A DNA stretch of 64,000 nt from Promethearchaeota archaeon Loki_b32 (GCA_005223125.1 NJBH01000012.1:1-64000), one strand, 5' to 3'. Counted from the stretch's first letter, positions 19,319 to 36,280 are shown. Notes: generated by a model from the letters alone, not told the origin. Made by a program: numbers and translations.

Positions 19319-22294
19319 TTAAAAAGTTTGCCGAAATATATCCATTATCGTTTTCTTATAAAAGAATTTTACCAAAATTATGTAGGTTCCAAGGAATGCA
19401 AAAGCAATTGATAAAATAAATACTCTCAATAATGTATCAATTGGTATAGTAAACACTACAGGCATTTCGGTCATTAGACTCATATTAGTTTCCATTAAAT
19501 ATGCTGTATATGTTCCAATTATCGTTCCCATAATACCTGCAGAAAGCAAAACTATCATACTTTCAACTAAAAACATATTCCTAACATTACGAGCTTTCAT
19601 ACCCATAGATCGAAGTATCCCTATCTCAAATTTTCTCTCCATAATAATTGCATACATACTACTAACTAAACCAAAAATGCTAATGATTATCGTGAACATT
19701 AAAATTAATTCCATTAAAAAAGCTTGTCTTTCGGTCATTGCCTCCATGAAATTTATTTTAGATATTGCATCATCGATGACAATATCTTTTTCTTGATACA
19801 TAGCTCGAATATCATCTTTTGTCTCTTTAATATTTTCTTCAGATTTTTCTATTAAATTTAAGAAAACTTTATCTACAATCATATTACTTTCTCCAGGGTT
19901 ATTAATTTTCATCAAACGCATATAATTCTCCAATGAAACCATTACTCCTCCTCCGGGTGCAGACATTTCATTAGTTCGGAAGTTGTAAAATCCTGGTATC
20001 CCTCCTGAAATTCCTACAACTCTAAATAAGGTAACATTGCCTGGATCACTTTCTACTAAGGGATCATAGAAAGTTATTCGTACATACTCCCCAACTTTAC
20101 TAATACCAAGTAGACTAGCGATTGATTTTGCTATAATACAAGTATTATTGTGAGTAAATAATTCATTAAAGGAATAATCAGTACTACTACCGTCACTCTT
20201 CCAGATTAATAAACCTTTATCAATTAAATCAACGAAATCCTCATTGATCCCTATAAATCCCGCATTAACGACATCAAAATCCATCATATCTCCTATTGTT
20301 GTTCTGAGTTTAGCTTCTTCTTGAGCTGAATAAAATTGAAATAAGTTCATCATCAATTCTTCTGTAGATTCACTCGAAAAACCTACTTGTCCCTCACTAA
20401 CCTCAAAAAGTGCTGCTAAAGTAGCAGTTAAATCGAAAGTATTATGAAGTGAAATAGCTAATTTATCAACACCAGCTAAAGTTTTCAATTCATCAACAAT
20501 TTCAAGAGTAAGTGCATCTTCAGGATTATATAAATCTTGGTTCATTAAGACTAAATCAGATCCATATTGAAATTTTAAATTTAAAGCTGTATTTTCTGAT
20601 TCCATTTCAGTTACGCTTGTTATGAAAAAAATAAATGAGAAACTAATGGCAAACATAACTACTGTACTGGTATTACGTCTTCTATACCGTTTTAACGAAA
20701 TACTAATTATGCTACTATATTTTCTTATACTTGGTGAAATTAATCCTAATAAGATTTTTTGAATTAATGGAATGACTCCCACTGATGCAAAAACCAAGCC
20801 AATTACAATTGCCGCAAGTAAACCAATAAATAATAATGAAGTTAACATGAAATCTCCAGTAACAAAAATATTTGGTAATAAGATAAAAACTATCATGCCA
20901 ATAACAGCAATCGAAATTCCAGTAAGAAAGCTTTTTACATTCATACTCCCTTCTTTTTTTACTTCCCATCCTTCTTCCTTAGTTTGAAATGGTGTAATTG
21001 ATTTTATGATATCAAGTTTGGCAGTTTTAAGAGCAGGTAATAAAGCTACTCCTAGAGATACCAAAGTTCCTATAGCAAATGACATTATTAGTGTATCGGG
21101 GTGAATAACCCATTCTACTTCCGAGAACTCAAATTGAAACCCATAGAGAGGGAATAAATTACTAGCAATTGGCCTTATTAAGGTAACACCCAATATCATT
21201 CCAATTATTGAGCCAAAAAGCCCTAACATTAAACCCTCAAAAAGAACCATTTTTACAGGATATATTTTTTTACCCCCCACTACTCTAACTATTCCGAATT
21301 CTCTCACTCTTTCCTCAACTGAAGTAGATAAGATACTATTTATTAGAATAGCAGTTATAAGCGTGGAAAGGATTGTAACAAACCAAAATATAATTGTTAC
21401 TGTCATTAATAAGAATTCACCACCTTCGAGTTCCTCTAATTTTGGGAGACTTACAGAAAATTCGTTAAGATCCAATCTTTCTTGTATTCTTGATCCGATC
21501 ACTCTAAGTCTCCGAGTTGTTTTTTCTAAATCACTAGCATCATATACAGATTTAGGATTAGTAATAGTTCCAAAAATAAAGTTTATTTGACCCTCTCTTT
21601 GCAGGAAAGTTTGGGCTTGCTGCAAATTAACAAGAATTAAGGAAGACTCAAATTGCATGAATCTAAGATCTTGAATACAGATTTCAACCACTGTTAAATT
21701 TAACTCATAAGTTTGATATTCAATATTAATCTTATCACCTTTACTAACATTAAGGATCTCTGCAACATTCCAAAGTATAACACATTCGCCATTATTTGGC
21801 TCTCTATCATAGATTTCATTCGTTTCTTCACCTTCATCATCCACAATGACTAAATCTCCCATATTTCCATTATTATCTTCTTTAATAAAATCAATTCCAT
21901 ATAATTGTAAAAAACCGCTTGTGTTTATTTTATCTGAAGTTGTTTTTACTAGCATTGAAATACGTGGAAATAATTCATCAATTCCATCAATATCCGTCAA
22001 TTCATTATTAATGATATCCTCATCATAGAATGGATTAAATGTTAAATCTGTTTGGAGGGATCGAGTTATCATTATATCACTCTTACCCGTAATCGAGGTA
22101 ACATACAATAAGTAGTTATAGTTTACCGTATCATTTAACATTCCAATTGTTGTTAATAGGAATAATGAAATTGCGATACCAGATATCCCAAAAATAGCTT
22201 TCGCTTTATCACGTTTAAGGTCAAGCCAAGAGTGCTTAAAAAATTGCAGGTCTATTCTTTTTTTTAATTTATATATAAATCCTCTCAATTCCAT
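19319..22294 (-). CDS. FtsX/MacB-family ABC permease (two FtsX units)
   Basis: ERVREFGIVRVVG and ERKFEIGILRSMG motifs, large extracellular domains. Confidence 0.92.
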   Translation of the reverse strand: MELRGFIYKLKKRIDLQFFKHSWLDLKRDKAKAIFGISGIAISLFLLTTIGMLNDTVNYNYLLYVTSITGKSDIMITRSLQTDLTFNPFYDEDIINNELTDIDGIDELFPRISMLVKTTSDKINTSGFLQLYGIDFIKEDNNGNMGDLVIVDDEGEETNEIYDREPNNGECVILWNVAEILNVSKGDKINIEYQTYELNLTVVEICIQDLRFMQFESSLILVNLQQAQTFLQREGQINFIFGTITNPKSVYDASDLEKTTRRLRVIGSRIQERLDLNEFSVSLPKLEELEGGEFLLMTVTIIFWFVTILSTLITAILINSILSTSVEERVREFGIVRVVGGKKIYPVKMVLFEGLMLGLFGSIIGMILGVTLIRPIASNLFPLYGFQFEFSEVEWVIHPDTLIMSFAIGTLVSLGVALLPALKTAKLDIIKSITPFQTKEEGWEVKKEGSMNVKSFLTGISIAVIGMIVFILLPNIFVTGDFMLTSLLFIGLLAAIVIGLVFASVGVIPLIQKILLGLISPSIRKYSSIISISLKRYRRRNTSTVVMFAISFSFIFFITSVTEMESENTALNLKFQYGSDLVLMNQDLYNPEDALTLEIVDELKTLAGVDKLAISLHNTFDLTATLAALFEVSEGQVGFSSESTEELMMNLFQFYSAQEEAKLRTTIGDMMDFDVVNAGFIGINEDFVDLIDKGLLIWKSDGSSTDYSFNELFTHNNTCIIAKSIASLLGISKVGEYVRITFYDPLVESDPGNVTLFRVVGISGGIPGFYNFRTNEMSAPGGGVMVSLENYMRLMKINNPGESNMIVDKVFLNLIEKSEENIKETKDDIRAMYQEKDIVIDDAISKINFMEAMTERQAFLMELILMFTIIISIFGLVSSMYAIIMERKFEIGILRSMGMKARNVRNMFLVESMIVLLSAGIMGTIIGTYTAYLMETNMSLMTEMPVVFTIPIDTLLRVFILSIAFAFLGTYIILVKFFYKKTIMDIFRQTF

Positions 22295-22324
22295 ATTCTT
22301 TATTCTTCAATTTTTTATTTTTCT

Positions 22325-25300
22325 TTATAGATCTAAAATACTAAATTTTTCTTTCCGTCTTTTAAATTTTCTCAGAATTTTTCCTTCTTTAGCTAAAATT
22401 TCTTGAATATCTTCTTTTTCACGTCTAATTAACCTCACTCCTTCACAATTTTTGTTTTTACAATGATAATTTTCTCCTGGTTCATCGAAATATTGAAATT
22501 TTCCACAGTTTGTACAGTTATATGCAGCATAAATTTGATCATGCTCACATTCAGGACAAATAATATTAAATTTCGTAGATACAAACCAGGATCTGCATGA
22601 TTTGCAATATAGAGTTAAAGGTCTATTTAATTCTTCTTCATGTTCAATTAATTCTATCCTTTTAATTACTTGATCTTTATCAATATCTTTAAGTCGTACT
22701 TTTTCAGCACGAGTGTCTTTTAAATTCTCAACCCATCCTTTTCCCTTTTTTTCAGCTATAATGTATAATATCACCCCTAAGGCAACTGCTATAAAAATTA
22801 TCGTGATATATGGACCCCATGTACGCCACCATCTCATATTATCGACCTTTAATACAATAAACACTTCTGCTTTATTTCCTTCTTTATCATAAGCTACTAC
22901 TCTTACTTCATATATACCATCGCTATATTGAACAGTATCCCAATTAAATTCTAGAATACTAGTATTACTATTGAAAATGAGTTCATTTCTATCAACACTC
23001 TTATTATTAAGAAGAATGTATATTCTAGACTCATCTAATTCGACATTATCAAATATATGCGCTTTAATCTTAATCAATGATTTAGCAATTATATCTGGTT
23101 CAGGTGCGATAATCTCTATTTCGGGAGCTACAAAATCCGTTGATTTATCATATCCTATATAAATATTAGATAAAAGCCAACCATATCCTAATCCAATTAC
23201 ATTATTATTTGAATGTAGTGTGAACATTATCATTATATCTTCATTTGAATATTGTGTAATATCAAATCGTTTACTTCCAGAAAGATCTTCATCGTCATAT
23301 GCAAATTCCCGAAGAATTGTCCAAGTTTCTCCAAAATCTTTTGAAACTGATATAATACATTTATCTACTTGATCCTCAGGTACAAAGAATTCATTCTGTA
23401 AAGAAATATCATAATCAAATTCAAGATAAATACTATATTCACCCCCCAAATGTAAAGGGCGAGTTATTAATTTTGAGTCCCAATTTGGATCATATCCTTG
23501 TTCTAGACTTCCATAACTTTGTCCTATCCCTCCATATAGAAGAGAATTTCCAAGTCGGATTATTGGATGCCAGGTATTATCTCCCCCAAACCATGCTGTC
23601 ATTTCTTTTGGTGTTGGTGTTCCTGTAATATAATAATCTGATAAACTTGAATTTGAAAAATTATATCCAATATATTTGTTATCCTTATAAACATTAAATT
23701 GCAAAGGACTTGGATTTATAAATTTAAATAAGGAATTATTTTTATTATATAATCGGGTTGTAATCATATATTTCCCATCTGAAACGTGAAACCTAAATGA
23801 TTGATTAGAAATTTCTTCTAAAACGAGAGATTTAACAAAATGAATCCCATTATCTCCAAACATATTCGAGTTAGAATCCCAATCTCCATAGAGATTACAC
23901 ATTGTAAAATTCGTATCATCCATTTCTAAATATATAAATTCAGGATAATTATTATCAATATCAAAGATCTCACATGAAAATGTAAATTTCTGATATTTTG
24001 AGCCTTGAGTTGAGGAGATATCATTATTTAAATCAAATATAATTGAGGGGAGATTTATATTCGTATAATTCTCAATAGCAAAATAATCCAAAATAAATCC
24101 TTTATAATTTACGGTATCAAAAGTATCATCTAGAGATGTTTCGAATCTAAATTGGATAAAGTTTCCAATATAATGAGTTAAATTAATCTCTTGCATAAAC
24201 CATTCTTGCTCTATATTAGTATAGGTTCGTAAAGTTATCCATCCGGTCCAATTTAGATTAATTTGAAAATATAGGAAATCTCCAGCATTGAAGCTAATTC
24301 GAAAACCGAATTTTACAAATGGTTGTGTAGTTTTTTCATTAAGGTTTGTTAAATTAAATAATGGACTGTATAAAGTTCCATTTGGATATGGATCTTCAGT
24401 TATTCTAATAGGTTGATATGTATAATTTTGTGGATAATCATGATAGGTACCAAAATATAAAGAATTCCATGAATTCTGATAGATTCTTGATCTATTATCA
24501 TTTATATTCGTTTGCTGTAACACATTCCACCCTGTCCCTGAAGATGTCCAATTTCCAAATCCATTATCAAAATCTTGATGATTTGGGAATTGTATACTAT
24601 CCGTTGGAAATTCAATTGTGATATTAAGTTGTTTAGTATCAGGATATCTTGTTGTAAACGTACCATCACTGGCAATAAAAAAGTAGTGATATATACCTGG
24701 TCTTGGAAATTGAATGTAATCACTCATGAATAATGCCCCATCTGTATAATTATTATCTATTGGATTGAATTGAGTTAAAGTAAAGTTTTCCATTGTTTCT
24801 ACTATAGAAACATATACTTCTTGGGGTGGTACATTTGAAGTATCATTATCAAAATACTCAATATAAAATCTATAACTATCAATACTATAATTTTTCTTAG
24901 GCTTATAACCCATAAATTCTTGGAAACTCATGATTGTTGTATTTTTAGAACCACCTAAATAAAGAATTTCAGGAATTTTTAATTCTGGCTTAAAACTATT
25001 CTTAATGGTTGAAATATTCAAAGTAAAATCACTATTCCCATCGATTGCTTTTACGATAATAACACAATTGGTTTGGTTTTTTTTAGGAGTAAAATAAAAA
25101 TAATCAAAATCACCATACCATTTTCTAGAAGATTCTAAAAGGATTGGTTCACCATATTGATTTGATTCATTAGAAAAAAGATACATGTCAAAATTAGTAT
25201 TTATATCAGCTATTGATAAATTAAATGAATACTGTATGTCTTCTTCAAGTGTGATTTGTCGAGCAAACACGTGTGTTCCAAGAGGATTTTCTTGAGAACT

Positions 25301-27100
25301 TATTAAATTTCCAATAATAGAACTATTGACATCCATAAATTTGGTTAAAGCATCAATTGCAGCCTCAATGTTTAATCTTCCATATCCTTCATGAATGTCC
25401 TTTAAGCCACTTGTCATTGGAGCTACTGATAAAGAAGGTGAATGTTCACTCTCATCACTACTAGTAGATGGATCATCTTCTCTTTCCAGATTCGTTTCTG
25501 AAGCAGTCATCAATAAATAAGCCTTAATATACTTTACCCATTTTGTTAAATTTAAATTGCTCCATTGATTCCAATTATTCCATTTTGCTTCTATTAATAT
25601 ATTTAAAGCAGCTGAGACTATAGCTGTAGCAATTGATGTACCATAAGCCGCTGTAACTTTGTCGAATTCTTCATTAGCACCTATAACTGAACGATGACCT
25701 GGTAGTTTGCTCCCTCCAGGCGCAACGATGTCTGGTTTGGTAATATTATCGATTTCTTTACCCATACTGCTATAAGAGGTAACTTGATCCTTATCATTTA
25801 TTGCACCGACAATAATTGCATTTTTATTTTGAGCTAATCTATTTAATGAATCTGAAACTTCTACACCTTTATTTCCGGCAGTAATTACTACTAATGTACC
25901 ATTTTCTATTACCTCATCTATTGCAGCATTCACAGCTACTACATCTTCTCCGAATGTACCAACACTTAAACAAACACTAACAATATGATGCTTACTTTTA
26001 TTTTGTATTACACTTGCTAATGCTGATATCAAATTTGAGGAAAATCCTATTCCAGAATGATTTAAAATCTTATATGATACGATTTTTGTAGCATTTGCAA
26101 TTCCAGTAAAATGATTTCTATCACTAGTAAACACTTCGGGAAAATAAGATACTGTAGTATTAAATGAAAAAATTGGATTAGTTTGGAAATCTCTCTTATA
26201 TTTTAGATATAAATCATAAATTCCTAATTTGTCTTGGGTAATCGTTTGATCTATCATGTAATAATCATTAGGGTTTTCGTTATATGAATAATTCACTAAA
26301 GTATTATTATAATGTAATTCAAACCAAAAATTTAGTATTCCATCAGCTTTTCGAGTCCATGAAGAATTAATTAGTATACTTGAATCCACTTTAGACGCAT
26401 TAAAAGAAAATAATTTTAGAGTGAAATTTTGTAAAGCAGAACCTCCCCCAAATAACTCTCTATGTGAATAATTTCCATGGATCTTAACAATTGAGGGAGT
26501 ATTTGAGTCATATGGATCGATACCTGTTCCTGAAATAATAGAAGTAATTAAGGTTCCATGTCCATTATCATCAGATATAGGTTGCATATCTACAAAATTT
26601 TCCCAACCGATTATATCTCCAATCAAAAAATCGTGGTTTGGATTAACTCCAGTATCCAATACAGCTATGGAAGAATTCGTATCCCCTTTTAACCCGTTTA
26701 AATACCACGTAGAATTTATAGCTCCAGATTGAATAGAAGCATAATTCATTTGAGCTTCTAGTACCTCATTATTTTCAATTATAGCATCCGGAAAATCATT
26801 TTGAAATGCTGTTTTATTCGTTTCAAGAGGCATAATACCAGCAAATCCAGAAAATGAACTAAATTGATTATTCCATTCTCTTTCAATAGTTCCACTATAG
26901 AATTCAAACCGTGATGTAACGGAGCTATTATAAGAGGGTTTTCTAAAAAAGACAATAATATTTTTATAATAATTACTTGAGATTTCGGGATCTGTTTCAT
27001 TTTGATTTTCTATTTCATTAAAATCTAGGATAATCAAATTATCAAGAAAAAAGCTTACAAATGAAAAAGTCAGAAACAAAATAATAAGACCAGAATACAT
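22325..27100 (-). CDS. Membrane-anchored multidomain S8 subtilase with cytoplasmic zinc-ribbon tail
   Basis: VLDTG, DNGHGT, AGN, GTS catalytic motifs; Ig-like domain; C-terminal TM helix, then four Cys pairs. Confidence 0.9.
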   Translation of the reverse strand: MYSGLIILFLTFSFVSFFLDNLIILDFNEIENQNETDPEISSNYYKNIIVFFRKPSYNSSVTSRFEFYSGTIEREWNNQFSSFSGFAGIMPLETNKTAFQNDFPDAIIENNEVLEAQMNYASIQSGAINSTWYLNGLKGDTNSSIAVLDTGVNPNHDFLIGDIIGWENFVDMQPISDDNGHGTLITSIISGTGIDPYDSNTPSIVKIHGNYSHRELFGGGSALQNFTLKLFSFNASKVDSSILINSSWTRKADGILNFWFELHYNNTLVNYSYNENPNDYYMIDQTITQDKLGIYDLYLKYKRDFQTNPIFSFNTTVSYFPEVFTSDRNHFTGIANATKIVSYKILNHSGIGFSSNLISALASVIQNKSKHHIVSVCLSVGTFGEDVVAVNAAIDEVIENGTLVVITAGNKGVEVSDSLNRLAQNKNAIIVGAINDKDQVTSYSSMGKEIDNITKPDIVAPGGSKLPGHRSVIGANEEFDKVTAAYGTSIATAIVSAALNILIEAKWNNWNQWSNLNLTKWVKYIKAYLLMTASETNLEREDDPSTSSDESEHSPSLSVAPMTSGLKDIHEGYGRLNIEAAIDALTKFMDVNSSIIGNLISSQENPLGTHVFARQITLEEDIQYSFNLSIADINTNFDMYLFSNESNQYGEPILLESSRKWYGDFDYFYFTPKKNQTNCVIIVKAIDGNSDFTLNISTIKNSFKPELKIPEILYLGGSKNTTIMSFQEFMGYKPKKNYSIDSYRFYIEYFDNDTSNVPPQEVYVSIVETMENFTLTQFNPIDNNYTDGALFMSDYIQFPRPGIYHYFFIASDGTFTTRYPDTKQLNITIEFPTDSIQFPNHQDFDNGFGNWTSSGTGWNVLQQTNINDNRSRIYQNSWNSLYFGTYHDYPQNYTYQPIRITEDPYPNGTLYSPLFNLTNLNEKTTQPFVKFGFRISFNAGDFLYFQINLNWTGWITLRTYTNIEQEWFMQEINLTHYIGNFIQFRFETSLDDTFDTVNYKGFILDYFAIENYTNINLPSIIFDLNNDISSTQGSKYQKFTFSCEIFDIDNNYPEFIYLEMDDTNFTMCNLYGDWDSNSNMFGDNGIHFVKSLVLEEISNQSFRFHVSDGKYMITTRLYNKNNSLFKFINPSPLQFNVYKDNKYIGYNFSNSSLSDYYITGTPTPKEMTAWFGGDNTWHPIIRLGNSLLYGGIGQSYGSLEQGYDPNWDSKLITRPLHLGGEYSIYLEFDYDISLQNEFFVPEDQVDKCIISVSKDFGETWTILREFAYDDEDLSGSKRFDITQYSNEDIMIMFTLHSNNNVIGLGYGWLLSNIYIGYDKSTDFVAPEIEIIAPEPDIIAKSLIKIKAHIFDNVELDESRIYILLNNKSVDRNELIFNSNTSILEFNWDTVQYSDGIYEVRVVAYDKEGNKAEVFIVLKVDNMRWWRTWGPYITIIFIAVALGVILYIIAEKKGKGWVENLKDTRAEKVRLKDIDKDQVIKRIELIEHEEELNRPLTLYCKSCRSWFVSTKFNIICPECEHDQIYAAYNCTNCGKFQYFDEPGENYHCKNKNCEGVRLIRREKEDIQEILAKEGKILRKFKRRKEKFSILDL

Positions 27101-27127
27101 TTTTTTTTTTTTTATTTCAGATCCCCT

Positions 27128-30100
27128 CTATTCTGTAGTATTTTCAAATTTAATTGTTGATTTATCTTTATTAATATCAAAATTGTGTTCAATATCTTTC
27201 CTCGATATTATACTTAATCTCTCTCTTAAAGTATGATCGATTTTGAAAATTGTTTCTCTTGAGCTAAGATGGAAAATTTCCGTTTCAGATCTTTCAAATT
27301 CACTTTTTTTCTTTTTATATTTTTTAGTTTGCCAAATATATACAGTCGAAATTACAAACACAATTAAAATTGGCAAACATATATAATATAATTGCCTGGT
27401 TTTCGGTGTAATTACTTTAATGGAAACAATATTTGATGATTCTTTATTTTCTAGCAAATAATAAAATTTTATACTAGCAGGCTTTAAACTTACAAGAGCT
27501 TGCCTTTTCGATTTAAGTGTGTAATTAATAGAAATTTTTTCATTAGGTTCTAATGAAATAATTAAATTAACTAGCTTACCTGTTAATAAGGAAAAATCTG
27601 ATTGAGAATAACTTATCATGTCATTTACTCTAAAATTATTAATAGCTATTGTTCCTGTATTTTCTACCTCAATGTTTACAATTACTACATCTCCAATTTC
27701 AATTTGATCCTTATTCACGGATTTCACTATTGAAAAGTTTATTTCCCCTAATATTTTAAATGAAGAATCAGAGATTTGGATTGTTCTGCTTTCTGAACTT
27801 TTAATAAAATTTATTGAGGGATAAAAATATCCTTTCCATCCAATCTTTTGTAGAGTTATATTAAAAGCAATTCTTTCATTATAGGTTATATTTTCAAAAT
27901 AAAGTAGCTCATCATCAAATCTCCTTAAATCACCAAACTGATCATTCATTATTACACTAATATCAGGTATTTGAAACCCTATAGGCCCAATATTTTTGAG
28001 ATTTACTGTTAGATTAAAAATGTCACCTATACCAGGTGCTTCATTAATAGGGTTTGAATTACTATTGTTATAATAAATTTCAATGGTTCTTGTAAATGGG
28101 GAACGATCCTCATAGTCAACAGGTGCAGAAACATAAACCTCATTAGTAAAACTAACTATTTTAGAAGAATTTCCTCCTTGGATCTTTTCTGGATTATAAT
28201 AAACTATTGAGGTTTTACTAATTGAAATTGAATTAGGTACATAGAAGGTAAAATTTAATGTTTTTTCTTCAAAAGGAACTAGTTTTTCTATATAATAGGA
28301 TAAATTGCTATTTTGAAGAGTGAAATTTCTAAATTTATCCATGATACCTGGTATTAACAATGAAATACTTAGGTTTTCAGCAATATTAGAACCAATGTTC
28401 TTAAAATTAATAGTGTATGTATTTAATTCTCCAGGATTAGAATAATTCTTTGCGAGGTATGAATAAGCTACTATTGAAGCTGCATTAAAAGTGCTTAATG
28501 GAATAGAATTAGATCGCTTTTCAAATTGAACGTAACTAGTCGAGGAGGCATATAAAACTCTAGAACCAGAATCATCATTAAAATTAATATCTCTAGTGGA
28601 AAATTCGATATCTAAATCATTGATTGAAATATTAAACTGTTCAGAATCGATACATATGATTTTGAATAGAACCGTATAGTTATTATTATCGAGGGGATAA
28701 AAAAGCCAGTTTAAACTCTCATTATTATTAACAAATGAAAATGTCCAAGTATTGTTTATAATGGAATCTAAATACGGACTCATATCTCTAAATTCTTCAG
28801 CATCAAAATCAAAAATTTCAAAATCTAAAGAGTCTAAGTTATCCGGTGAGGTTATATTAATAATAATAGAGGCTCTTTCTAATGTGTTATTAGTAAAATC
28901 GATATTAGTATTATTCTTAAAAATAAACTCAAGTTCAATTCTCTGTTCCAAAAATTGTTCAATTGATCCAATTATCCAACTCTCATTATCGGTTGACAAT
29001 GCCATTTCTGGTGAAGTTCCGACTAATTGTGTCCCATATATAATTTCTGGTGTTTTAGGTGCGGATTCAATAGTGAAATTATTCAAATAGAAAGGAGAAA
29101 ATGAATCTAAATTAGCAATCGAATAGTTATTAATTTGATAAGATAACATTTCTCCAGGTTCCAATTTCCAATTATCGTCATTATAAATACTGTATTTATT
29201 TGAAAAAATGTCCGTAAGTTCTCCTGGTGTAAGACCTAAAATTGCTAATGCTGAAATTAATTGAGGATATCCTGTGACCATTTTATCAATTACATTATCA
29301 ATATCTTCATTATATGGTGATAGATTCGTCAAATTGAGTATATTTGGGAAAAAAGTATCATAAATTCCTGTACCAAATGAATCAAAATAAAAAATACGAG
29401 GATCCTCATCAAAATTGAAAAAATCTTCTAATGATTCATATTGATTTGGATATTCAATACGCACTACTTCCCATAAGGTATTTTGAAACTCATCTGCTAT
29501 ATCTTGATTTCCTAATGTAAGAAGGAGAAAATAATCATTAAGTTCAATCGGAATGGGGGTAGGTATGCCCCATGCGGTGATCTCCCCCACATTTTCTGCT
29601 GATATATAATATGAAAAGTCTCTAAATGCCCCATAGGATGCATTTCCTTCAATTAACTCCTTTTTAATGTAAAGATTAGGTTCGGTATCAGAAACATTAT
29701 AAGTAACAGATAGTTCATTGAACGGATTTACAATACCTGTGGGAATAGAAGAAAAACCTTGAAATCCTAAATATTGCAGCATATTTACAATATCTGATGG
29801 GTTATTTAAATTAACTGGTTTAACATAAGAATGCTTAATGCCCCCATCATTTACCCAAAATAATTCAAATGAGTAATCTTCAAGTTCTTGAACATCAAAT
29901 TCTGTGCCTGCAAGATAAAATATTAGAGCTATTTGCTCTAAAAGGTAATCATAAAACTCAAAATTTATTGGAATTGCATCAATGATATCAGTACATAAAA
30001 TATTTATTTCAATTTCACTCATAAAAGCACCAACTAATGCAATATATATTTTCTCACTTGGTGCTAAAGGTTCTCCTTCATAGCCTAATGCTTTCCACAA

Positions 30101-31084
30101 ATTAAATTTGTATTGGTTGGTTCCAACTTCTTGTATTCCTTCATCTAGGCCTTCATATTGAATAGATATACTAGTATAATGCGTGTCATTTTTAAGTGTG
30201 AATGAGCCAAAAATATCAGTAAATTGTTCAAATTCATCTTCTGAAATCGTAACGTTGATCAAGTCACCATAGTTTTCAGTTAGAGCATCGAATTGATCAA
30301 TAATGTTTTCCATTTCTAAATTTTCAATAAAAGATAAATCAATAGAATCTATATTAAAATTTACCTGATCCATAGATAAATCATAATCTCCCTCAAAAAA
30401 GTCTAAAGAATTTAGAAGCATAAAAGTAGAAGAAATATGATAATCCTCCAAATACATTTGGCTTGTTAAACGATTTAGGTCCATTGCCTTCCAATATCCG
30501 TCCATAGGAAAGTTGGTTGTAAGCTCTTGAAAAAAGCAATCCCAATTTGGGGGATGGCCAACAAAGGGGAAAAGATTTGGTTCTGATACATTTACCATTA
30601 TAAGGTCAATCGAAAATTTTTGTCTGATTATCTCCAGTGCTCTTTCAGCTCTCGATTTAGCATCTTCTGTATCTAAATCCTTATCATAATAAAGAAATCC
30701 CACAAAATTATTAAATCCCATTATATATTGAGATGGGATCTCACTTTCAGTCAATATTGTTGGAAAAATTTCTGGATTGACTCCATTTGAAGCACTTATA
30801 ATTATATTACATTTAGAAAAAGCTGGATCATTTGAGTCAAATTGGGACAGAATATTAGTATCATTTGTAAAAAGCGATTGTTTTATTATGGATTTATTTC
30901 CTACTACAAAAGCCTTAATACTTTCGGCATATAGATCTGATCCAGCAATATCTGAAGATTTCAAATCTTTTTTTTCTGTTTCTATTAAATTATCTTCTTT
31001 ATTTTGAAATAAAACATGATCTAAGGGAAGTAGAAAAATCATTGAGAAAAGTATGAATATAATAATTAGTTTGTTTTTCTTCAA
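27128..31084 (-). CDS. Large secreted, membrane-anchored surface glycoprotein with DUF11/BatD/COG1361-like Ig repeats
   Basis: Signal peptide, repeated NxG motifs (ENVG, KNIG, KNIG, ENTG), many N-x-S/T sequons, C-terminal TM followed by KKYKKKK. Confidence 0.75.
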   Translation of the reverse strand: MKKNKLIIIFILFSMIFLLPLDHVLFQNKEDNLIETEKKDLKSSDIAGSDLYAESIKAFVVGNKSIIKQSLFTNDTNILSQFDSNDPAFSKCNIIISASNGVNPEIFPTILTESEIPSQYIMGFNNFVGFLYYDKDLDTEDAKSRAERALEIIRQKFSIDLIMVNVSEPNLFPFVGHPPNWDCFFQELTTNFPMDGYWKAMDLNRLTSQMYLEDYHISSTFMLLNSLDFFEGDYDLSMDQVNFNIDSIDLSFIENLEMENIIDQFDALTENYGDLINVTISEDEFEQFTDIFGSFTLKNDTHYTSISIQYEGLDEGIQEVGTNQYKFNLWKALGYEGEPLAPSEKIYIALVGAFMSEIEINILCTDIIDAIPINFEFYDYLLEQIALIFYLAGTEFDVQELEDYSFELFWVNDGGIKHSYVKPVNLNNPSDIVNMLQYLGFQGFSSIPTGIVNPFNELSVTYNVSDTEPNLYIKKELIEGNASYGAFRDFSYYISAENVGEITAWGIPTPIPIELNDYFLLLTLGNQDIADEFQNTLWEVVRIEYPNQYESLEDFFNFDEDPRIFYFDSFGTGIYDTFFPNILNLTNLSPYNEDIDNVIDKMVTGYPQLISALAILGLTPGELTDIFSNKYSIYNDDNWKLEPGEMLSYQINNYSIANLDSFSPFYLNNFTIESAPKTPEIIYGTQLVGTSPEMALSTDNESWIIGSIEQFLEQRIELEFIFKNNTNIDFTNNTLERASIIINITSPDNLDSLDFEIFDFDAEEFRDMSPYLDSIINNTWTFSFVNNNESLNWLFYPLDNNNYTVLFKIICIDSEQFNISINDLDIEFSTRDINFNDDSGSRVLYASSTSYVQFEKRSNSIPLSTFNAASIVAYSYLAKNYSNPGELNTYTINFKNIGSNIAENLSISLLIPGIMDKFRNFTLQNSNLSYYIEKLVPFEEKTLNFTFYVPNSISISKTSIVYYNPEKIQGGNSSKIVSFTNEVYVSAPVDYEDRSPFTRTIEIYYNNSNSNPINEAPGIGDIFNLTVNLKNIGPIGFQIPDISVIMNDQFGDLRRFDDELLYFENITYNERIAFNITLQKIGWKGYFYPSINFIKSSESRTIQISDSSFKILGEINFSIVKSVNKDQIEIGDVVIVNIEVENTGTIAINNFRVNDMISYSQSDFSLLTGKLVNLIISLEPNEKISINYTLKSKRQALVSLKPASIKFYYLLENKESSNIVSIKVITPKTRQLYYICLPILIVFVISTVYIWQTKKYKKKKSEFERSETEIFHLSSRETIFKIDHTLRERLSIISRKDIEHNFDINKDKSTIKFENTTE

Positions 31085-31099
31085 GGTTTTTTGATCCTC

Positions 31100-34000
31100 C
31101 TAAAATGTTTCCCTATAAATTTCAACAATTTTCTTTTTTCTGGCTTTTCGTAACAGCAGCTTCATTCCAAGATATATCATGGTTATGGAGAGGAAATAAA
31201 TTAATCCAATATTAAACCATGGTACATATAGTATCTCAACTGAGCCTGATAATACACTTAAATTTGAGGTTACCAACCATGCTGTAAACCAACCTACAAG
31301 AATCCCTATAGTTCCACTACTAATCATTATGATTAAGGATTCAATTATAAATAAACGATTTATATCTTTACCTTTTAATCCTAATGTTCTAACTATTCCA
31401 ATCTCTTTCTTTCTTTCGATAATAGTTGAATAAGATGATGAAAGTAAGCCAAAAATACATATAAATACTGTTGTTAGAGAAATAAGTGTAAATAGAGTAT
31501 CTAATACAAAAAATGCAGACTCTTGCTGTGCAACCATCCGTGCTAAATTAAATATATCATAATTATAATCCGATTGATATAAATCATCAATCATTTCCTC
31601 AATATAATAAGCTTCTGATAATTTATCTTCTCGAAGTTTAATAAAAACTCTGTCTAAATAAGCGACTGGAGGAATATCCATAATTTCAATATATGTCTCT
31701 TGGGAGATTAAAACTCCACCTCTTTGTGCACTCATTGGTGATGATCCAAACTCCATTGAGAATCCAGGCATGCTTTTAGCGGTTCCAACAATTTTAAAAG
31801 GATATACTTCCAACTCATCTCCTCGGTGAATAACGATCCTAACATTATCACCAACCAGTAAGGACATTGCTATTGAAATCGCTTCAGAGATAATGCATGT
31901 ATACAATAGATTATCATAGAATAGACTATTAAAGGCATTATTTATATTACCAGAAGTCATTTCTATAAATTCATTTCTCACGGTAAAAGTATATTCTTCA
32001 TCAATTCCAATTAGGGTTATTTCTTGTGTGGTTAAACCAGCATAATCACCAATTTCAGCAATAAATTCCTTATTTTCTTCCGCATAGATTTGAGTTAATT
32101 GGTAAGGCTGTGCCAATACAGATGATACTTTCTCAACGCCATCAATTGCTAATAATTCTACTTCAAATTCAGTAGTCAAGATTCTATTGGGATTTATAGA
32201 ACTATCTAAGGTTTTTAAGGTCTGTAATTCTAAAAGTTCATTGGCAGAAATCCCATCACTGGCCATCAAACCAATTCCCCCTCCCCCTCCAAATCCTCCT
32301 TGGAAAATGTCCTCTTGTTCTTCCCAACCAGTAGTCTTTATAACTAGATCTGATCCAAAGCTTAATTGTGTCATAGCAGTTTCTTGTGCTGATAAAGTGT
32401 TAATAAGAGTAGAAGTAAAAATAACAAATGAAAAAGATAATGCAAAAATCATGACTGTACTCGAATTCCTTCTTTGGTATCGAAATATAAAAATTTTGAT
32501 AACATTGTGGAGACGTCTAGTTATTGGGCGAAATAAATGAATTACTAACCTCAAAACTACGGGAACTAATCCTAGTCCCGCAAGAGTTAATCCAATATTA
32601 AATATTAGTAAAATCGCTATCAATACTCCTGCGAATAAACTCATGTCACTTGAAACCATAATTCTTGGAATAACATAAAATACAAATCCTCCATTAAATG
32701 CCAGAATTACACCTACTAAAATTAATTTATAATTAACTGAAGCTTTCTTTTGTAAGCGATATAATGTATCTTCGTGGCGATATGGATGAATAGATTCGAT
32801 TAATTGAAGTTTCATGACTTTCAAAGCAGGAGCGATACTAACTATCATTCCTACACTAAGTCCCATAACATATGATATTATAATAGACCACCAAGTAAAG
32901 GAGAAAGGTATTTGACTAAATCCTAACGCACTCTGGGAAACTACGGTATTAGCAAAAGGTATTATAACAAATCGAGAAAGAATAAATGCTGTTATAATTC
33001 CTGAAATGGCACCAAAATTACACAATAAAAAACCTTGCATCAAGACTATTGATAAACTATATTTTTTATTTGCCCCTAAAGTTCTAAATATCCCAAATTC
33101 TCTGATTCTTTCCTCTATAGAAGTTTTTAAAATACCATTAATTAGAACCCCCGAAATGAGCATTGCTACAATCGAAACGAAAACAAAAATAATTACTATA
33201 AATACGCTTAAAAGCTCGGACCATCCTAAAATTCTTAATTTGGGTAAATCAATATTATATTCATTTATACCTATCGCTATTTGAATATCTGTTACTAGGT
33301 TCTTCACAAGGGTTTTAGAACCTTCAAGATCTCTAATATCATATAAACTATTACTTTGTTTGAAAGTAAGTATTAAATCACTGCATTTCCCGTTAAATTC
33401 ACTAAAACCAAAATATTGATAAAGCGTGTTAATATCCACTATAATTAAATTATCATTACGGTACTCTACTGGCCATTTTAAATTGTAATCAAAAATTTTA
33501 TCAATTGTTAAATTTACGGTACGAGAGAGGTTTATATTTCCATGAGTTAATTGCATGTTTATTTCAATTATATCATTTTCAGAATATTTAATAATATCAT
33601 TAAATCCATGATATATTGCACAGTGATTTAAAGGTAATTCATTTAGATCAAGTAAGTCATTATACACTGGATCAATAAAGCGCCCAAAATTAATACTATT
33701 TTCCAAAGAAAAATTAATTGCTGAGATCTTGCACCAAATCTTTTCATTTGTTAGATCAGTAGTATGAAAACCTTCAGAAATATTCACATCTCCATAAATC
33801 TCCATTCTTGGTATATAATGTTCAATTGCATTAGTTGTTTCTTGTATTGTTTGAATAACTGGATCATAATTGAAATATGAGGATCTATTATCAGGTTCTC
33901 CATTATAATGTCTTATTGAGATAACAGCGTCTTGATTTCCTGAATCTATAGATAAATAATTAATGTAACCTACAGATATAGAATCTGATAATAATAATAC

Positions 34001-34114
34001 AACTGTAAGAAGGCCTATAGAAATAAGCATTCCAATTATAGCTAATAATGTCCGTATTTTTTGCTTTTTTAAGTCTAAAAAAGCATATTTGAAAATAAGT
34101 TTAAGATTAGTCAT
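31100..34114 (-). CDS. FtsX/MacB-family ABC permease (paralog of 19319-22294)
   Basis: ERIREFGIFRTLG and ERKKEIGIVRTLG motifs. Confidence 0.92.
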   Translation of the reverse strand: MTNLKLIFKYAFLDLKKQKIRTLLAIIGMLISIGLLTVVLLLSDSISVGYINYLSIDSGNQDAVISIRHYNGEPDNRSSYFNYDPVIQTIQETTNAIEHYIPRMEIYGDVNISEGFHTTDLTNEKIWCKISAINFSLENSINFGRFIDPVYNDLLDLNELPLNHCAIYHGFNDIIKYSENDIIEINMQLTHGNINLSRTVNLTIDKIFDYNLKWPVEYRNDNLIIVDINTLYQYFGFSEFNGKCSDLILTFKQSNSLYDIRDLEGSKTLVKNLVTDIQIAIGINEYNIDLPKLRILGWSELLSVFIVIIFVFVSIVAMLISGVLINGILKTSIEERIREFGIFRTLGANKKYSLSIVLMQGFLLCNFGAISGIITAFILSRFVIIPFANTVVSQSALGFSQIPFSFTWWSIIISYVMGLSVGMIVSIAPALKVMKLQLIESIHPYRHEDTLYRLQKKASVNYKLILVGVILAFNGGFVFYVIPRIMVSSDMSLFAGVLIAILLIFNIGLTLAGLGLVPVVLRLVIHLFRPITRRLHNVIKIFIFRYQRRNSSTVMIFALSFSFVIFTSTLINTLSAQETAMTQLSFGSDLVIKTTGWEEQEDIFQGGFGGGGGIGLMASDGISANELLELQTLKTLDSSINPNRILTTEFEVELLAIDGVEKVSSVLAQPYQLTQIYAEENKEFIAEIGDYAGLTTQEITLIGIDEEYTFTVRNEFIEMTSGNINNAFNSLFYDNLLYTCIISEAISIAMSLLVGDNVRIVIHRGDELEVYPFKIVGTAKSMPGFSMEFGSSPMSAQRGGVLISQETYIEIMDIPPVAYLDRVFIKLREDKLSEAYYIEEMIDDLYQSDYNYDIFNLARMVAQQESAFFVLDTLFTLISLTTVFICIFGLLSSSYSTIIERKKEIGIVRTLGLKGKDINRLFIIESLIIMISSGTIGILVGWFTAWLVTSNLSVLSGSVEILYVPWFNIGLIYFLSITMIYLGMKLLLRKARKKKIVEIYRETF

Positions 34115-34123
34115 ATGGCTAAA

Positions 34124-35302
34124 TTAGTTTAAAATTAATATTTCTCCTTCAATCCTCCCAAAAAAATTGTTTTCTTCAATTAACTCCTGCAATATATCAT
34201 TAAAATGTTCTGGTAAATTCATAACAATAGAATTTGGAATACTATTTTTAATTTCACTTACCGGAATTTCTACTCTCCCTTGATTTGCAAATAAATATTG
34301 AAAAATTTTACACTTACATTTCTCTTTATTTATTTCAGTTTCTTGTCTTCTTTTCAGTTGCATTATTTCAGTTTCCTTTAAACCTCCAATTTTACCTTCA
34401 TGAGTTAGTTTTCCGTCTCTCATATGAAAAACCCTAGTAGCAAATTCTGATACAGCAGCATCGTGGCTTACCGCAATGAATGTTGCTCCTCTTTTATTTA
34501 AATCTCTGAGAAGGTTTAAAACCATAACTCCTGTTTTTGAATCTAAATCACCCGTAGGTTCATCTAATACACAAATCGCAGGATCATTTGCAAAAGCTCT
34601 GGCTATAGCAACTCTTTGCTGTTCACCTCCACTCAATTCTGAAGGTGTATGATGGGCTCTTTCATCTAGTCCTACTAATCTTAGAAGGTCCAGCGCTTTT
34701 TTTCTTTTACCCCGACGACTTAACTTCCCTGAAAAGTGTAAAGGGACCATTACATTTTCCATGGCTGTCATTTGAGGGAGTAAATTATAAAATTGAAACA
34801 CAAATCCTATTCTTTCTCTCCTAATCTCAGCTAAGGAATTATCGGATAACATACTAATATTTCTGCCTTCCAGAAATATTTTTCCCCTTGTAGGCGCGTC
34901 AAGTCCTCCAATTAAATTGAGGAGAGTAGTTTTTCCCGAACCTGAAGGACCCATTATATCGATGAAATCTCCCGTATCTATGGTTAAATCAACACCACGT
35001 AGCGCTGCCACAGCTGTGGTTCCTAATAAATAAGTCTTATGCAGATTTTCAACAACTATTAAATGATCATAGTCTTTATCAGCAACTTTATCTTCCCTAA
35101 TTTCTCTTTTCATCTTTTTCTTTTCAATCTTCGACTGAGTAAGCAATTCTACTTTTTGTTGCTTTATATCTTCTTGTTTTTTCTTTTTTTTCCATTTTTT
35201 AAAGTTCTTTGAAACTTCGCCTTTCCAAATTGCTAAATTACCCGTTTCTTGTTCATATTGCTCCATAAGAGGAGTCTTTTTAATTAGTGTTGATTTGGGC
35301 AT
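34124..35302 (-). CDS. LolD/MacB-type ABC ATPase with N- and C-terminal extensions
   Basis: GPSGSGKT, GFVFQFYNL, LSGGEQQRVAIARA, DEPTGDLD, SHD. Confidence 0.95.
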   Translation of the reverse strand: MPKSTLIKKTPLMEQYEQETGNLAIWKGEVSKNFKKWKKKKKQEDIKQQKVELLTQSKIEKKKMKREIREDKVADKDYDHLIVVENLHKTYLLGTTAVAALRGVDLTIDTGDFIDIMGPSGSGKTTLLNLIGGLDAPTRGKIFLEGRNISMLSDNSLAEIRRERIGFVFQFYNLLPQMTAMENVMVPLHFSGKLSRRGKRKKALDLLRLVGLDERAHHTPSELSGGEQQRVAIARAFANDPAICVLDEPTGDLDSKTGVMVLNLLRDLNKRGATFIAVSHDAAVSEFATRVFHMRDGKLTHEGKIGGLKETEIMQLKRRQETEINKEKCKCKIFQYLFANQGRVEIPVSEIKNSIPNSIVMNLPEHFNDILQELIEENNFFGRIEGEILILN

Positions 35303-35548
35303 TTTAAGTTCTCTTTACTTTAATTTATGCTTTTTACAGAAAAATCTTCTTTTTCGTATTAATATAATTTTTCACTTTATTAATATCACAATGCTAAAAT
35401 AAACTTTTTCAGAATACTAAACTTGTACAGATATGAAAAGTGTGAAAATCTTTTAAAAATTGAGGTTCTAATTAAATAGAACATTTAAAATCCTTTATGG
35501 AATCAAAAAATCCAACATTGTTTTACAACGGTGTAATAATAAAAAGAG

Positions 35549-36280
35549 TTATTTATTTTTAGTTTTTAGATATTCTAAGATTTTAGCATAGATATCTTTT
35601 TCAGCATCTTTTTTGTTTCTAAATTCGTCCGATTTTAATTTTTTTGTTATTTCTATTAATTCTATTTGTTTAGTTTTTTCTAAGATCCTTGGATTCTTCG
35701 CTATCCAGATCAAGTCGTGATCTTCCCCGCTTTTTTGATATTCAAGTTCGATAACAATAGAAGTCTTAAATTTTACCTGTAAAAATTCTAATAATTCATT
35801 TTTACTAGAAATTATCGGATTTTGAGCCTTAATATTCAAATCTGTGATAAAGGGATTTATAATTGTTTGTTCAACTATATTTAAATTATGTTCAGAATCA
35901 AGAAATATTGCACCACATATAGCCTCAAATACATCAGCTAAAATCCTCGTCCCTATAATAGGTTGGTTTTCAGTTTTAAATATAAATTCATGCAAATTCA
36001 TTGAATCTGCTACTCTTTTTAAATTTTTATCGCTTTCTAAAGCTGCTTTTATTTTAGTTATTTCACTTGGAGTATTTATACCCTCTTGATATAATTTTAA
36101 AATAAAAATAATTTTGATTACTGAGTCTCCTAGTGTTTCCAGAAATTCATAACTAGGTTTGCCTATGATATTCGCCATTTGTGGAGTAGTTAAAGCTTGC
36201 TCTAAAAGTTCTTCGTTTTTAAACTTATAATCTAAAAACTCTTGAAATTTGCGTAATTTATATTTCTCGATCGTAAACAT
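35549..36280 (-). CDS. rnc: Ribonuclease III family protein with dsRBD-like C-terminus
   Basis: EFLETLGDS and ADVFEAICGAIFLD catalytic motifs; K.ELLE.LQ...G.DH...KKDAE tail. Confidence 0.85.
   Translation of the reverse strand: MFTIEKYKLRKFQEFLDYKFKNEELLEQALTTPQMANIIGKPSYEFLETLGDSVIKIIFILKLYQEGINTPSEITKIKAALESDKNLKRVADSMNLHEFIFKTENQPIIGTRILADVFEAICGAIFLDSEHNLNIVEQTIINPFITDLNIKAQNPIISSKNELLEFLQVKFKTSIVIELEYQKSGEDHDLIWIAKNPRILEKTKQIELIEITKKLKSDEFRNKKDAEKDIYAKILEYLKTKNK

Follow-up and report, generated by a model that had tools for sequence, protein, structure and literature searches.

Gene organization of the locus

The 64,000-nt stretch of DNA analysed here (GCA_005223125.1 NJBH01000012.1:1-64000), hereafter the window, belongs to Promethearchaeota archaeon Loki_b32. 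On its minus strand, a row of five genes encodes an ATP-binding cassette (ABC) ATPase, two paralogous permeases, a giant single-pass surface protein and a giant single-pass subtilase (Table 1), and the same row recurs in three families of the order Promethearchaeales. A preliminary description of this DNA had reported five co-oriented genes with this order, 1318 and 1591 aa for the two large proteins and gaps of only 9, 15, 27 and 30 nt, all of which is borne out by the listing of open reading frames (ORFs) of the window.

Table 1. Genes of the five-gene module and features within and beside them, in window coordinates
Feature	Position	Strand	Basis
ABC ATPase, LolD/MacB/FtsE type, 392 amino acids (aa)	34124..35302	(-)	ORF listing, Pfam, NCBIfam
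Permease A, 1004 aa; two FtsX domains, 10 predicted transmembrane (TM) helices, two ectodomains	31100..34114	(-)	
1318-aa single-pass surface protein, TTG start, read as a scaffold; orthologue of MK-D1 DSAG12_01731	27128..31084	(-)	
1591-aa single-pass S8 subtilase	22325..27100	(-)	Peptidase_S8, triad alignment
Permease B, 991 aa, paralogue of permease A; same 10-TM, two-ectodomain build	19319..22294	(-)	
ATPase Lys-rich N-terminal extension, residues 1-81	35060..35302	(-)	Alignment
ATPase C-terminal extension, residues 307-392	34127..34384	(-)	AlphaFold2 (AF2) model, weak Pfam matches
PIGT-like region of the 1318-aa protein, residues about 48-1113: N-terminal mixed alpha/beta, then beta-sandwiches	27746..30943	(-)	
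TRAP-beta-like membrane-proximal beta-sandwich of the 1318-aa protein, residues about 1113-1224	27413..27748	(-)	
TM helix (1232-1250) and poorly conserved cytoplasmic tail of the 1318-aa protein	27131..27391	(-)	Hydropathy scan, alignment
Subtilase TM helix (1431-1449) and cytoplasmic tail with double zinc ribbon	22328..22810	(-)	Alignments, weak Pfam
AT-rich intergenic region, 246 nt, upstream of the ATPase gene	35303..35548	(-)	

The preliminary description gave both large proteins a signal peptide and a C-terminal TM anchor; the N-termini are indeed hydrophobic, and one TM helix lies near the C-terminus of each. Their ectodomains are rich in N-X-S/T sequons: 31 were counted in the 1318-aa protein and 44 in the 1591-aa protein, against 17.2 ± 3.6 and 20.8 ± 3.8 in composition-matched shuffles, an enrichment absent by the same measure from both permeases. 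We keep the earlier term 'glycoprotein' as a putative one, and count the sequons of both ectodomains as a sign of surface exposure. Because the internal gaps measure only 9-30 nt, the 246-nt spacer upstream of the ATPase gene is alone in the unit in being long enough to leave room for a promoter. At the other end, the 3' end of the permease B gene converges on a Ham1 gene.

Conservation and distribution

Conservation of the gene neighbourhood had been set beforehand as the observation on which the preliminary description would stand or fall, and it proved to be strong. About 20 kb around the subtilase gene was compared in 16 genomes of the Promethearchaeales. All five genes share order and strand in three families (f1, f2 and f3), and gene order is identical in 17 of 17 loci inspected there, counting as conforming those truncated by a contig end that hold the expected subset of genes in the same order. 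A 17th locus of about 20 kb, around a partial relative from a fourth family (f4), holds none of the other module genes. The flanks vary: the RNase III, Ham1 and S15 genes of the window are kept only within the genus, and the flanks in f2 are different. Conserved order despite changed flanks indicates that the clustering is not due to chance and that the five genes move as a unit. Between families, the large proteins and the permeases share 25-40% identity and the ATPases about 60%. Most of the same-genus genomes searched contain a full-length orthologue of the subtilase, and the orthologues in other families of the order are 32-36% identical.

Exact-sequence matches place the module in both cultured species. 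In Promethearchaeum syntrophicum MK-D1 (G038) it comprises proteins QEE15902-15906, with tags DSAG12_01729-01733; DSAG12_01731 is the orthologue of the 1318-aa protein, and the remaining tags were inferred from consecutive accessions. In Candidatus Lokiarchaeum ossiferum B-35 (G328) it corresponds to NEF87_004156-004160, where permease B (NEF87_004156) and the 1318-aa protein (NEF87_004158) were matched and the other tags inferred in the same way. A third genome (G032) is that of Candidatus Harpocratesius repetitus.

In a phylum-wide sample, full-length relatives of the 1318-aa protein are confined to the Promethearchaeales, with counts of 98/131 in f1, 13/14 in f2, 1/1 in f3 and 3/4 in f4. 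This protein and permease A are jointly missing from the near-complete genomes G012 and G204, from all four sampled members of genus g12 and from most of g16 (G174, G180, G237). With both missing from the same genomes, the module is present or absent as a whole. The f4 version, seen in three metagenome-assembled genomes (MAGs), has four genes, encoding an ATPase with a PCI-like tail, permease A, the 1318-aa protein and permease B, and in these three MAGs no subtilase gene lies between the last two. The constant core thus consists of the ABC system and the 1318-aa protein. As to the label of this family, a permease of G027 is deposited under 'Candidatus Sigynarchaeota'.

Several features of individual lineages were recorded beside the module. 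In f4 (L062:4774-6057, L063:4842-6191), the gene directly downstream of permease B encodes a cytoplasmic VWA protein that has Ssl1/Tfb4-like matches and a RING-like zinc finger at its C-terminus. In at least four genera of the Promethearchaeaceae (f2), the gene directly upstream of the module ATPase, on the same strand and 90-340 nt away, has a product of about 500 aa that begins with a small GTPase domain of the Gtr1/RagA/Arf-like kind and is 29-43% identical between genera (L028:17311-18780 in MK-D1, L061:17371-18912 in L. ossiferum, and L029, L030, L032 and L034). No orthologue of it stands beside the module in the window genome, where a complete RNase III-domain gene (35549-36280, minus strand) sits just upstream of the operon, a position that it keeps only within the genus.

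The spacing between the genes also differs, with 4-nt overlaps in several lineages including MK-D1. In the window, the 27 nt that lead from the TAG stop of the 1318-aa gene to the subtilase ATG (27101-27127) are in frame; as this spacing is not conserved (MK-D1 has a 4-nt overlap and another frame), programmed read-through is unlikely. A lone in-frame TAA interrupts some otherwise full-length orthologues of the subtilase or the 1318-aa protein (G009:C106:32477-37294, G018:C2:59344-63267, G298:C9:26745-30620), copies that may be early pseudogenes or assembly errors.

The ABC transporter

The assignment to the type VII ABC systems (MacB/FtsX/LolCE-like) stands, given the FtsX domains and large ectodomains of the permeases and an ATPase of the LolD/MacB/FtsE type with intact motifs. 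Each permease carries two FtsX domains (Pfam, E 6e-31 and 3.5e-29), to which permease A adds a MacB_PCD match at residues 554-831. A hydropathy scan arranges the 10 helices as 4+2+4, with ectodomains of about 260 and 300 aa after TM1 and TM7 (about residues 42-301 and 572-872 in permease A). Both match the ADOP 'duplicated permease' and lolCE models of NCBIfam, at scores far below the cut-offs, and the best matches among PDB sequences are a MacAB-like permease, YtrF, MacB and LolF. That the two permeases are clear paralogues was correctly recognized: they are 33% identical from end to end (hhalign E 1e-160), and the shared motifs quoted at the time lie at residue 545 in A and 536 in B. Permease A orthologues invariably score closer to A than to B, so the duplication is older than the divergence of the four families examined.

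Outside the order, the nearest relatives come from three other Asgard families. They are two-gene operons that pair an ATPase (236-285 aa) with a single fused permease, set among unrelated neighbours and without large surface proteins. This arrangement suggests that one fused permease with an ATPase dimer is a self-sufficient unit, and the five-gene module would therefore be a derived, more elaborate form with one ATPase for two paralogous permeases. The preliminary description had seen in permeases A and B the halves of a heterodimer, a view that is not supported, each permease being already a fused pseudo-dimer with two FtsX domains and 10 TM helices. As each is a complete pseudo-dimeric unit, two transporters sharing one ATPase are the more parsimonious and more likely arrangement. 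An allotment of permease A to the 1318-aa protein and of permease B to the subtilase was rejected, since f4 keeps permease B without a subtilase. One outgroup locus (L055, G080:C4:829000-848900) holds two pairs of ATPase and fused permease 7 kb apart, with four small genes between them, and may be an intermediate toward a two-permease system.

In the ATPase, residues 118, 223 and 245 mark Walker A, the signature motif and Walker B, and all ABC motifs are invariant in an alignment of 14 orthologues. Its nucleotide-binding domain (NBD) is nearest to the LolD, DarD, MacB, FtsE and bacteriocin-exporter ATPases (Pfam ABC_tran, NCBIfam). The Lys-rich N-terminal extension is found in the seven same-genus orthologues aligned and is absent in f2 and f3. 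The C-terminal extension occurs only on module ATPases and is lacking in those of the outgroup two-gene operons. In it, an invariant GLKET linker is followed by a long helix and a winged helix of PCI-like appearance; AF2 gives residues 320-392 a predicted local distance difference test (pLDDT) score of 85-88, and the weak Pfam matches are to F-93_WHD in the window protein and to PCI (E 3e-4) in the f4 orthologue. When the ATPase model was used as a fold query, ABC cores took up the results, and the core of that model was itself poor (pLDDT 60.6 from 14 sequences). Co-variation of this tail domain with the zinc-ribbon tail of the subtilase was considered and rejected, because f4 keeps the PCI-like tail without a subtilase gene.

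The 1318-aa protein

The preliminary description presented the 1318-aa protein as a coat protein of immunoglobulin (Ig) repeats. Beta-sandwiches are indeed present, but in the predicted model most of its length is PIGT-like and its last domain resembles TRAP-beta. The AF2 model of residues 25-1224, built from 29 orthologues (mean pLDDT 82.9, predicted template modelling score 0.75), comprises about 620 aa of mixed alpha/beta structure and about 580 aa of beta-sandwiches. When it was compared with 48,161 PDB representatives by VIA-align, PIGT, chain T of the human glycosylphosphatidylinositol (GPI) transamidase, ranked first (7w72_T, 17.0, root-mean-square deviation 5.5 Å over 373/527 residues; 7wld_T, 16.4), followed by 9ub7_E at 12.7 and all others at 11.4 or less. 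The model thus combines a PIGT-like two-lobe lumenal fold ahead of a C-terminal TM helix with a TRAP-beta lumenal fold in the last domain, and its closest structural matches are both proteins of the eukaryotic endoplasmic reticulum. PIGT itself is a two-lobe scaffold with a C-terminal TM helix and keeps PIGK, a protease with a C-terminal anchor, about 22 Å above the membrane (PMC9098846).

Other searches were less specific. The top 50 Foldseek rows by E-value against the PDB were generic tandem-Ig proteins (alpha-2-macroglobulin, C3, integrin) with TM-scores near 0.1, and the ESM Atlas returned only DUF11/CARDB leads, below 0.9. Gpi16 (PF04113) gave no match at E up to 10 in the 29 orthologues or in five genomes of the order. 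Homology between the 1318-aa protein and the subtilase was rejected at an hhalign probability of 6%. Taken together, the PIGT-like body and the TRAP-beta-like last domain of the model fit a scaffold better than a cargo, and we read the protein as a putative scaffold.

The TRAP-beta likeness extends to the sequence level. Pfam matches to DUF11, TRAP_beta and BatD fall at residues 1118-1224; PF05753 (TRAP-beta) scores 25.5 bits in the window protein, against a gathering score of 22.4, and all 29 orthologues exceed that cut-off (best E 1.8e-15). In a comparison of the orthologue profile with PDB sequences, TRAP-beta chains were the sole matches with E < 0.01 (best 8e-4). DSAG12_01731 (1324 aa) is deposited as 'Translocon-associated protein beta', and a paper on the MK-D1 glycoproteome cites it as a TRAP-beta homologue (PMC11284389). 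The best PF05753 match is the 1318-aa protein in the window genome and DSAG12_01731 in MK-D1, so the call of a 'TRAP-beta' signature rests on one domain of a 1300-aa protein from an ABC operon. The domain is not specific to Asgard archaea either, since Methanosarcina acetivorans, a member of the control set, has a PF05753 match too. A second class of TRAP_beta-like proteins, from ORFs of about 450 aa (G032:C1:3261619-3261924, G038:C1:1639015-1639173, G000:C11:4087-4302), reaches 34 bits in Harpocratesius, while MK-D1 and the window genome give scores under the cut-off. It could be this class that other studies call TRAP-beta.

In the literature searched, we found no description of the operon, of a link between COG1361 and ABC genes or of the locus tags, in line with the preliminary description, which knew of none for the arrangement. 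A 2026 study assigns the GPI transamidase complex an Asgard origin and describes no such locus (PMC12872458).

The subtilase

The 1591-aa protein matches Pfam Peptidase_S8 (110 bits) and a Big_7 Ig domain. Its triad is D149/H181/S489 with N410 as oxyanion residue, and an insert of about 135 aa separates the His and Asn regions. Its best PDB sequence match is the subtilisin-like serine protease 3afg, which we take to be Tk-SP of Thermococcus kodakarensis. MK-D1, L. ossiferum and the window protein retain all four residues, as do the 16 full-length copies aligned from the window's genus.

Three genomes depart from this pattern (G030 and G034 in genus g5, G037 in g10). There the ORF is intact, the Asp is replaced by Gly, the His by Leu or Gln and the Asn by Asp, and the N-terminal stretch of about 70 aa that precedes the catalytic domain is lacking as well; both genera retain all five module genes despite these losses. 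The view of the protease as part of the constant core must consequently be given up, the S8 gene being missing in f4 and the Asp, His and oxyanion Asn lost in g5 and g10. The subtilase is an accessory part of the module.

On the cytoplasmic side, the tail holds four Cys pairs of a double zinc ribbon (CxxC at 1499, 1515 and 1529, CxxxxC at 1547), with weak Pfam matches to DZR and Zn_ribbon_6. The eight Cys are invariant in 17 module copies aligned; a second alignment has them in 17 of 17 same-genus rows, and places the last Cys of L. ossiferum one column off at CxxxxC. Paralogous giant subtilases, from ORFs of 1400-2200 aa whose likeness to the operon subtilase is limited to roughly the first 700 aa, are encoded elsewhere in other genomes (G038:C1:3753040-3755082, G005:C13:54319-56310, G027:C153:3048-5276 and others), without ABC genes at the G027 locus, the one checked for them. 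The window genome has no such paralogue.

Proposed mechanism and alternatives

Our leading reading, held tentatively, is that the five genes form one operon and encode one membrane machine, an ATP-driven platform for the processing of surface proteins. Conservation of the operon, the identities and topologies of its parts, the intact motifs of the ATPase and the fold matches are established here, whereas a physical association of the products, mechanotransmission and the substrate are inferred. The single ATPase, with its module-specific winged-helix tail, would power the two paralogous type VII permeases. The 1318-aa scaffold would be the constant extracytoplasmic partner. It would dock on the permease ectodomains and TM helices and, in most lineages, keep the single-pass subtilase in one position above the membrane, as PIGT does with PIGK. 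Movements of the ectodomains driven by ATP might in turn gate or power the processing of surface proteins anchored in the membrane, whether by cleavage, release or re-anchoring. Mechanotransmission to an extracytoplasmic partner appears to be the best working model.

Three points weigh against such a platform. The likeness to PIGT is at fold level only, in a predicted model, with 6-9% identity and no Pfam Gpi16 signal. Proteolysis cannot be a universal output, as the subtilase is absent in f4 and dead in three genomes. Lastly, the need for two permease paralogues is not accounted for.

The large proteins might instead form a structural surface complex, as adhesin- or coat-type 'complex surface densities', with the ABC system serving only insertion, quality control or turnover and no substrate being processed. 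Both ectodomains are rich in sequons and tandem beta-sandwiches, lineages with a dead triad retain the subtilase as a structural protein would be retained, and cryo-electron tomography of L. ossiferum revealed complex surface proteins and no S-layer (PMC9834061). We nevertheless hold this explanation to be unlikely, because the triad is strongly conserved in most lineages, and the invariant cytoplasmic zinc ribbons and the ATPase tail domain suggest a regulated activity rather than a passive coat.

The preliminary description had a heterodimer of permeases A and B, with one ATPase, control a tethered subtilase in the manner of FtsEX, the subtilase maturing or shedding the 1318-aa coat glycoprotein. 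The union of a type VII ABC system and two surface proteins in one conserved operon agrees with this model, as does the triad kept in the window, its 16 full-length same-genus copies, MK-D1 and L. ossiferum. It is placed in doubt, to a degree that makes it rather improbable, by the pseudo-dimeric build of each permease, by f4, which keeps both permeases and the 1318-aa protein without a subtilase, by the five genes kept with a dead triad in g5 and g10, and by the scaffold-like character of the supposed cargo.

Export or resistance of the MacB/BceAB kind, where the permeases would expel or detach a small molecule, a peptide or a lipid-linked compound and the large proteins would be accessory binders or degraders, seems quite improbable. 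The affinities of the NBD with LolD, DarD, MacB and bacteriocin-exporter ATPases, the permease matches to MacAB-like permease, YtrF, MacB and LolF and a fused 10-TM build reminiscent of BceB all point that way. However, the unit contains no gene for an adaptor, a sensor kinase or a peptide precursor, and strict co-inheritance with a 1300-aa PIGT/TRAP-beta-like protein would be left unexplained. Finally, although cultured relatives ferment amino acids and peptides and the subtilase is membrane-anchored with an intact triad, a nutritional protease that digests external protein for peptide-fermenting Lokiarchaeia is very improbable, for import is not a function of type VII ABC systems, some lineages with the module have a dead subtilase or none, and the unit has no solute-binding protein.

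Beyond the processing platform itself, one may speculate on an evolutionary extension of it, which we regard as a long shot: a GPI-transamidase- or sortase-like system of the archaeal plasma membrane that is the counterpart or evolutionary source of eukaryotic processing platforms in the lumen of the endoplasmic reticulum, PIGT and TRAP-beta descending from parts of the scaffold. The scaffold would present an anchored protease to C-terminally anchored surface proteins, and LolCDE-like ABC units would handle the hydrophobic anchor or the lipid acceptor, so that surface proteins could be cleaved and re-anchored. Exosortase and archaeosortase profiles had no match in five genomes of the order, and a re-anchoring role is thus not visibly filled by a known enzyme.

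The module bears on several questions of Asgard biology. The Lokiarchaeia have an envelope without S-layer and with "complex surface proteins", to which it adds a conserved ATP-driven surface system, and its presence in both cultured model species makes it directly accessible to study. The recognition of DSAG12_01731 as an ABC-operon protein changes the reading of "TRAP-beta" as a eukaryotic signature protein. The scaffold also becomes a concrete candidate for the prokaryotic ancestry, or for a functional analogue, of the GPI-transamidase scaffold PIGT.

Comparison with known systems

With FtsEX, whose partners are EnvC, PcsB, RipC and CwlO, the module shares a type VII ATPase, an FtsX-domain permease with a large ectodomain and a presumed action on an extracytoplasmic partner in place of solute transport. 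It differs in its permeases, which are fused 10-TM proteins in two paralogous copies, and in its partner, a single-pass PIGT/TRAP-beta-like protein with or without a subtilase instead of a coiled-coil activator of wall hydrolases; moreover, this group of organisms has no peptidoglycan. The equivalog cut-offs for FtsEX are not reached (FtsX_Gneg/FtsX_Gpos 21-38 bits against 225-255; FtsE 205 against 265).

LolCDE and MacB are close in that LolD and MacB are the best NCBIfam matches of the NBD, permease A has a MacB_PCD domain and the module, too, could act on membrane-embedded anchors. Unlike them, it has no lipoprotein pathway, adaptor or outer membrane, its ATPase bears a winged-helix tail, and the equivalog scores again stay below the cut-offs (lolCE 36-66 bits against 362; LolD 235 against 308). 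The BceAB and YbbAP/ADOP systems offer the same permease build of two FtsX domains and 10 predicted TM helices in one polypeptide, which recalls BceB, and ADOP is among the top NCBIfam matches of the permeases. BceB, in contrast, has one large ectodomain and the permeases here have two, no BceRS-like two-component genes accompany them, and their scores are far below the cut-offs.

The subtilase shares its S8 catalytic domain with the Tk-SP-like archaeal subtilases and with mycosin, the subtilase of type VII secretion. Mycosin, its best NCBIfam match, also carries a C-terminal TM anchor; the score is 62.7 bits against a cut-off of 278.75, and the protein here differs by roughly 900 aa of additional ectodomain and by the double zinc ribbon on its cytoplasmic side. 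TRAP-beta (SSR2) is a Sec61-associated protein of one domain and about 183 aa that works with TRAP-alpha and TRAP-gamma, whereas its likeness here makes up the last tenth of a 1318-aa ABC-operon protein, and no Sec or TRAP genes lie near the operon in the window.

For the GPI transamidase, partner subunits were sought in five genomes of the order. PIG-U had no match, a weak negative since the control set was also empty. For Gaa1, a single match turned up in the window genome and fell short of the threshold (16.9 bits, cut-off 28.6), and Peptidase_C13 had only partial matches, in MK-D1 and L. ossiferum, with none in the window genome. The protease here is a serine S8 subtilase and PIGK a cysteine protease of family C13, and the scaffold is 2.5 times longer than PIGT, with extra domains. 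What the module has in common with PIGT/PIGK is its plan, a PIGT-like single-pass protein encoded beside a single-pass protease.

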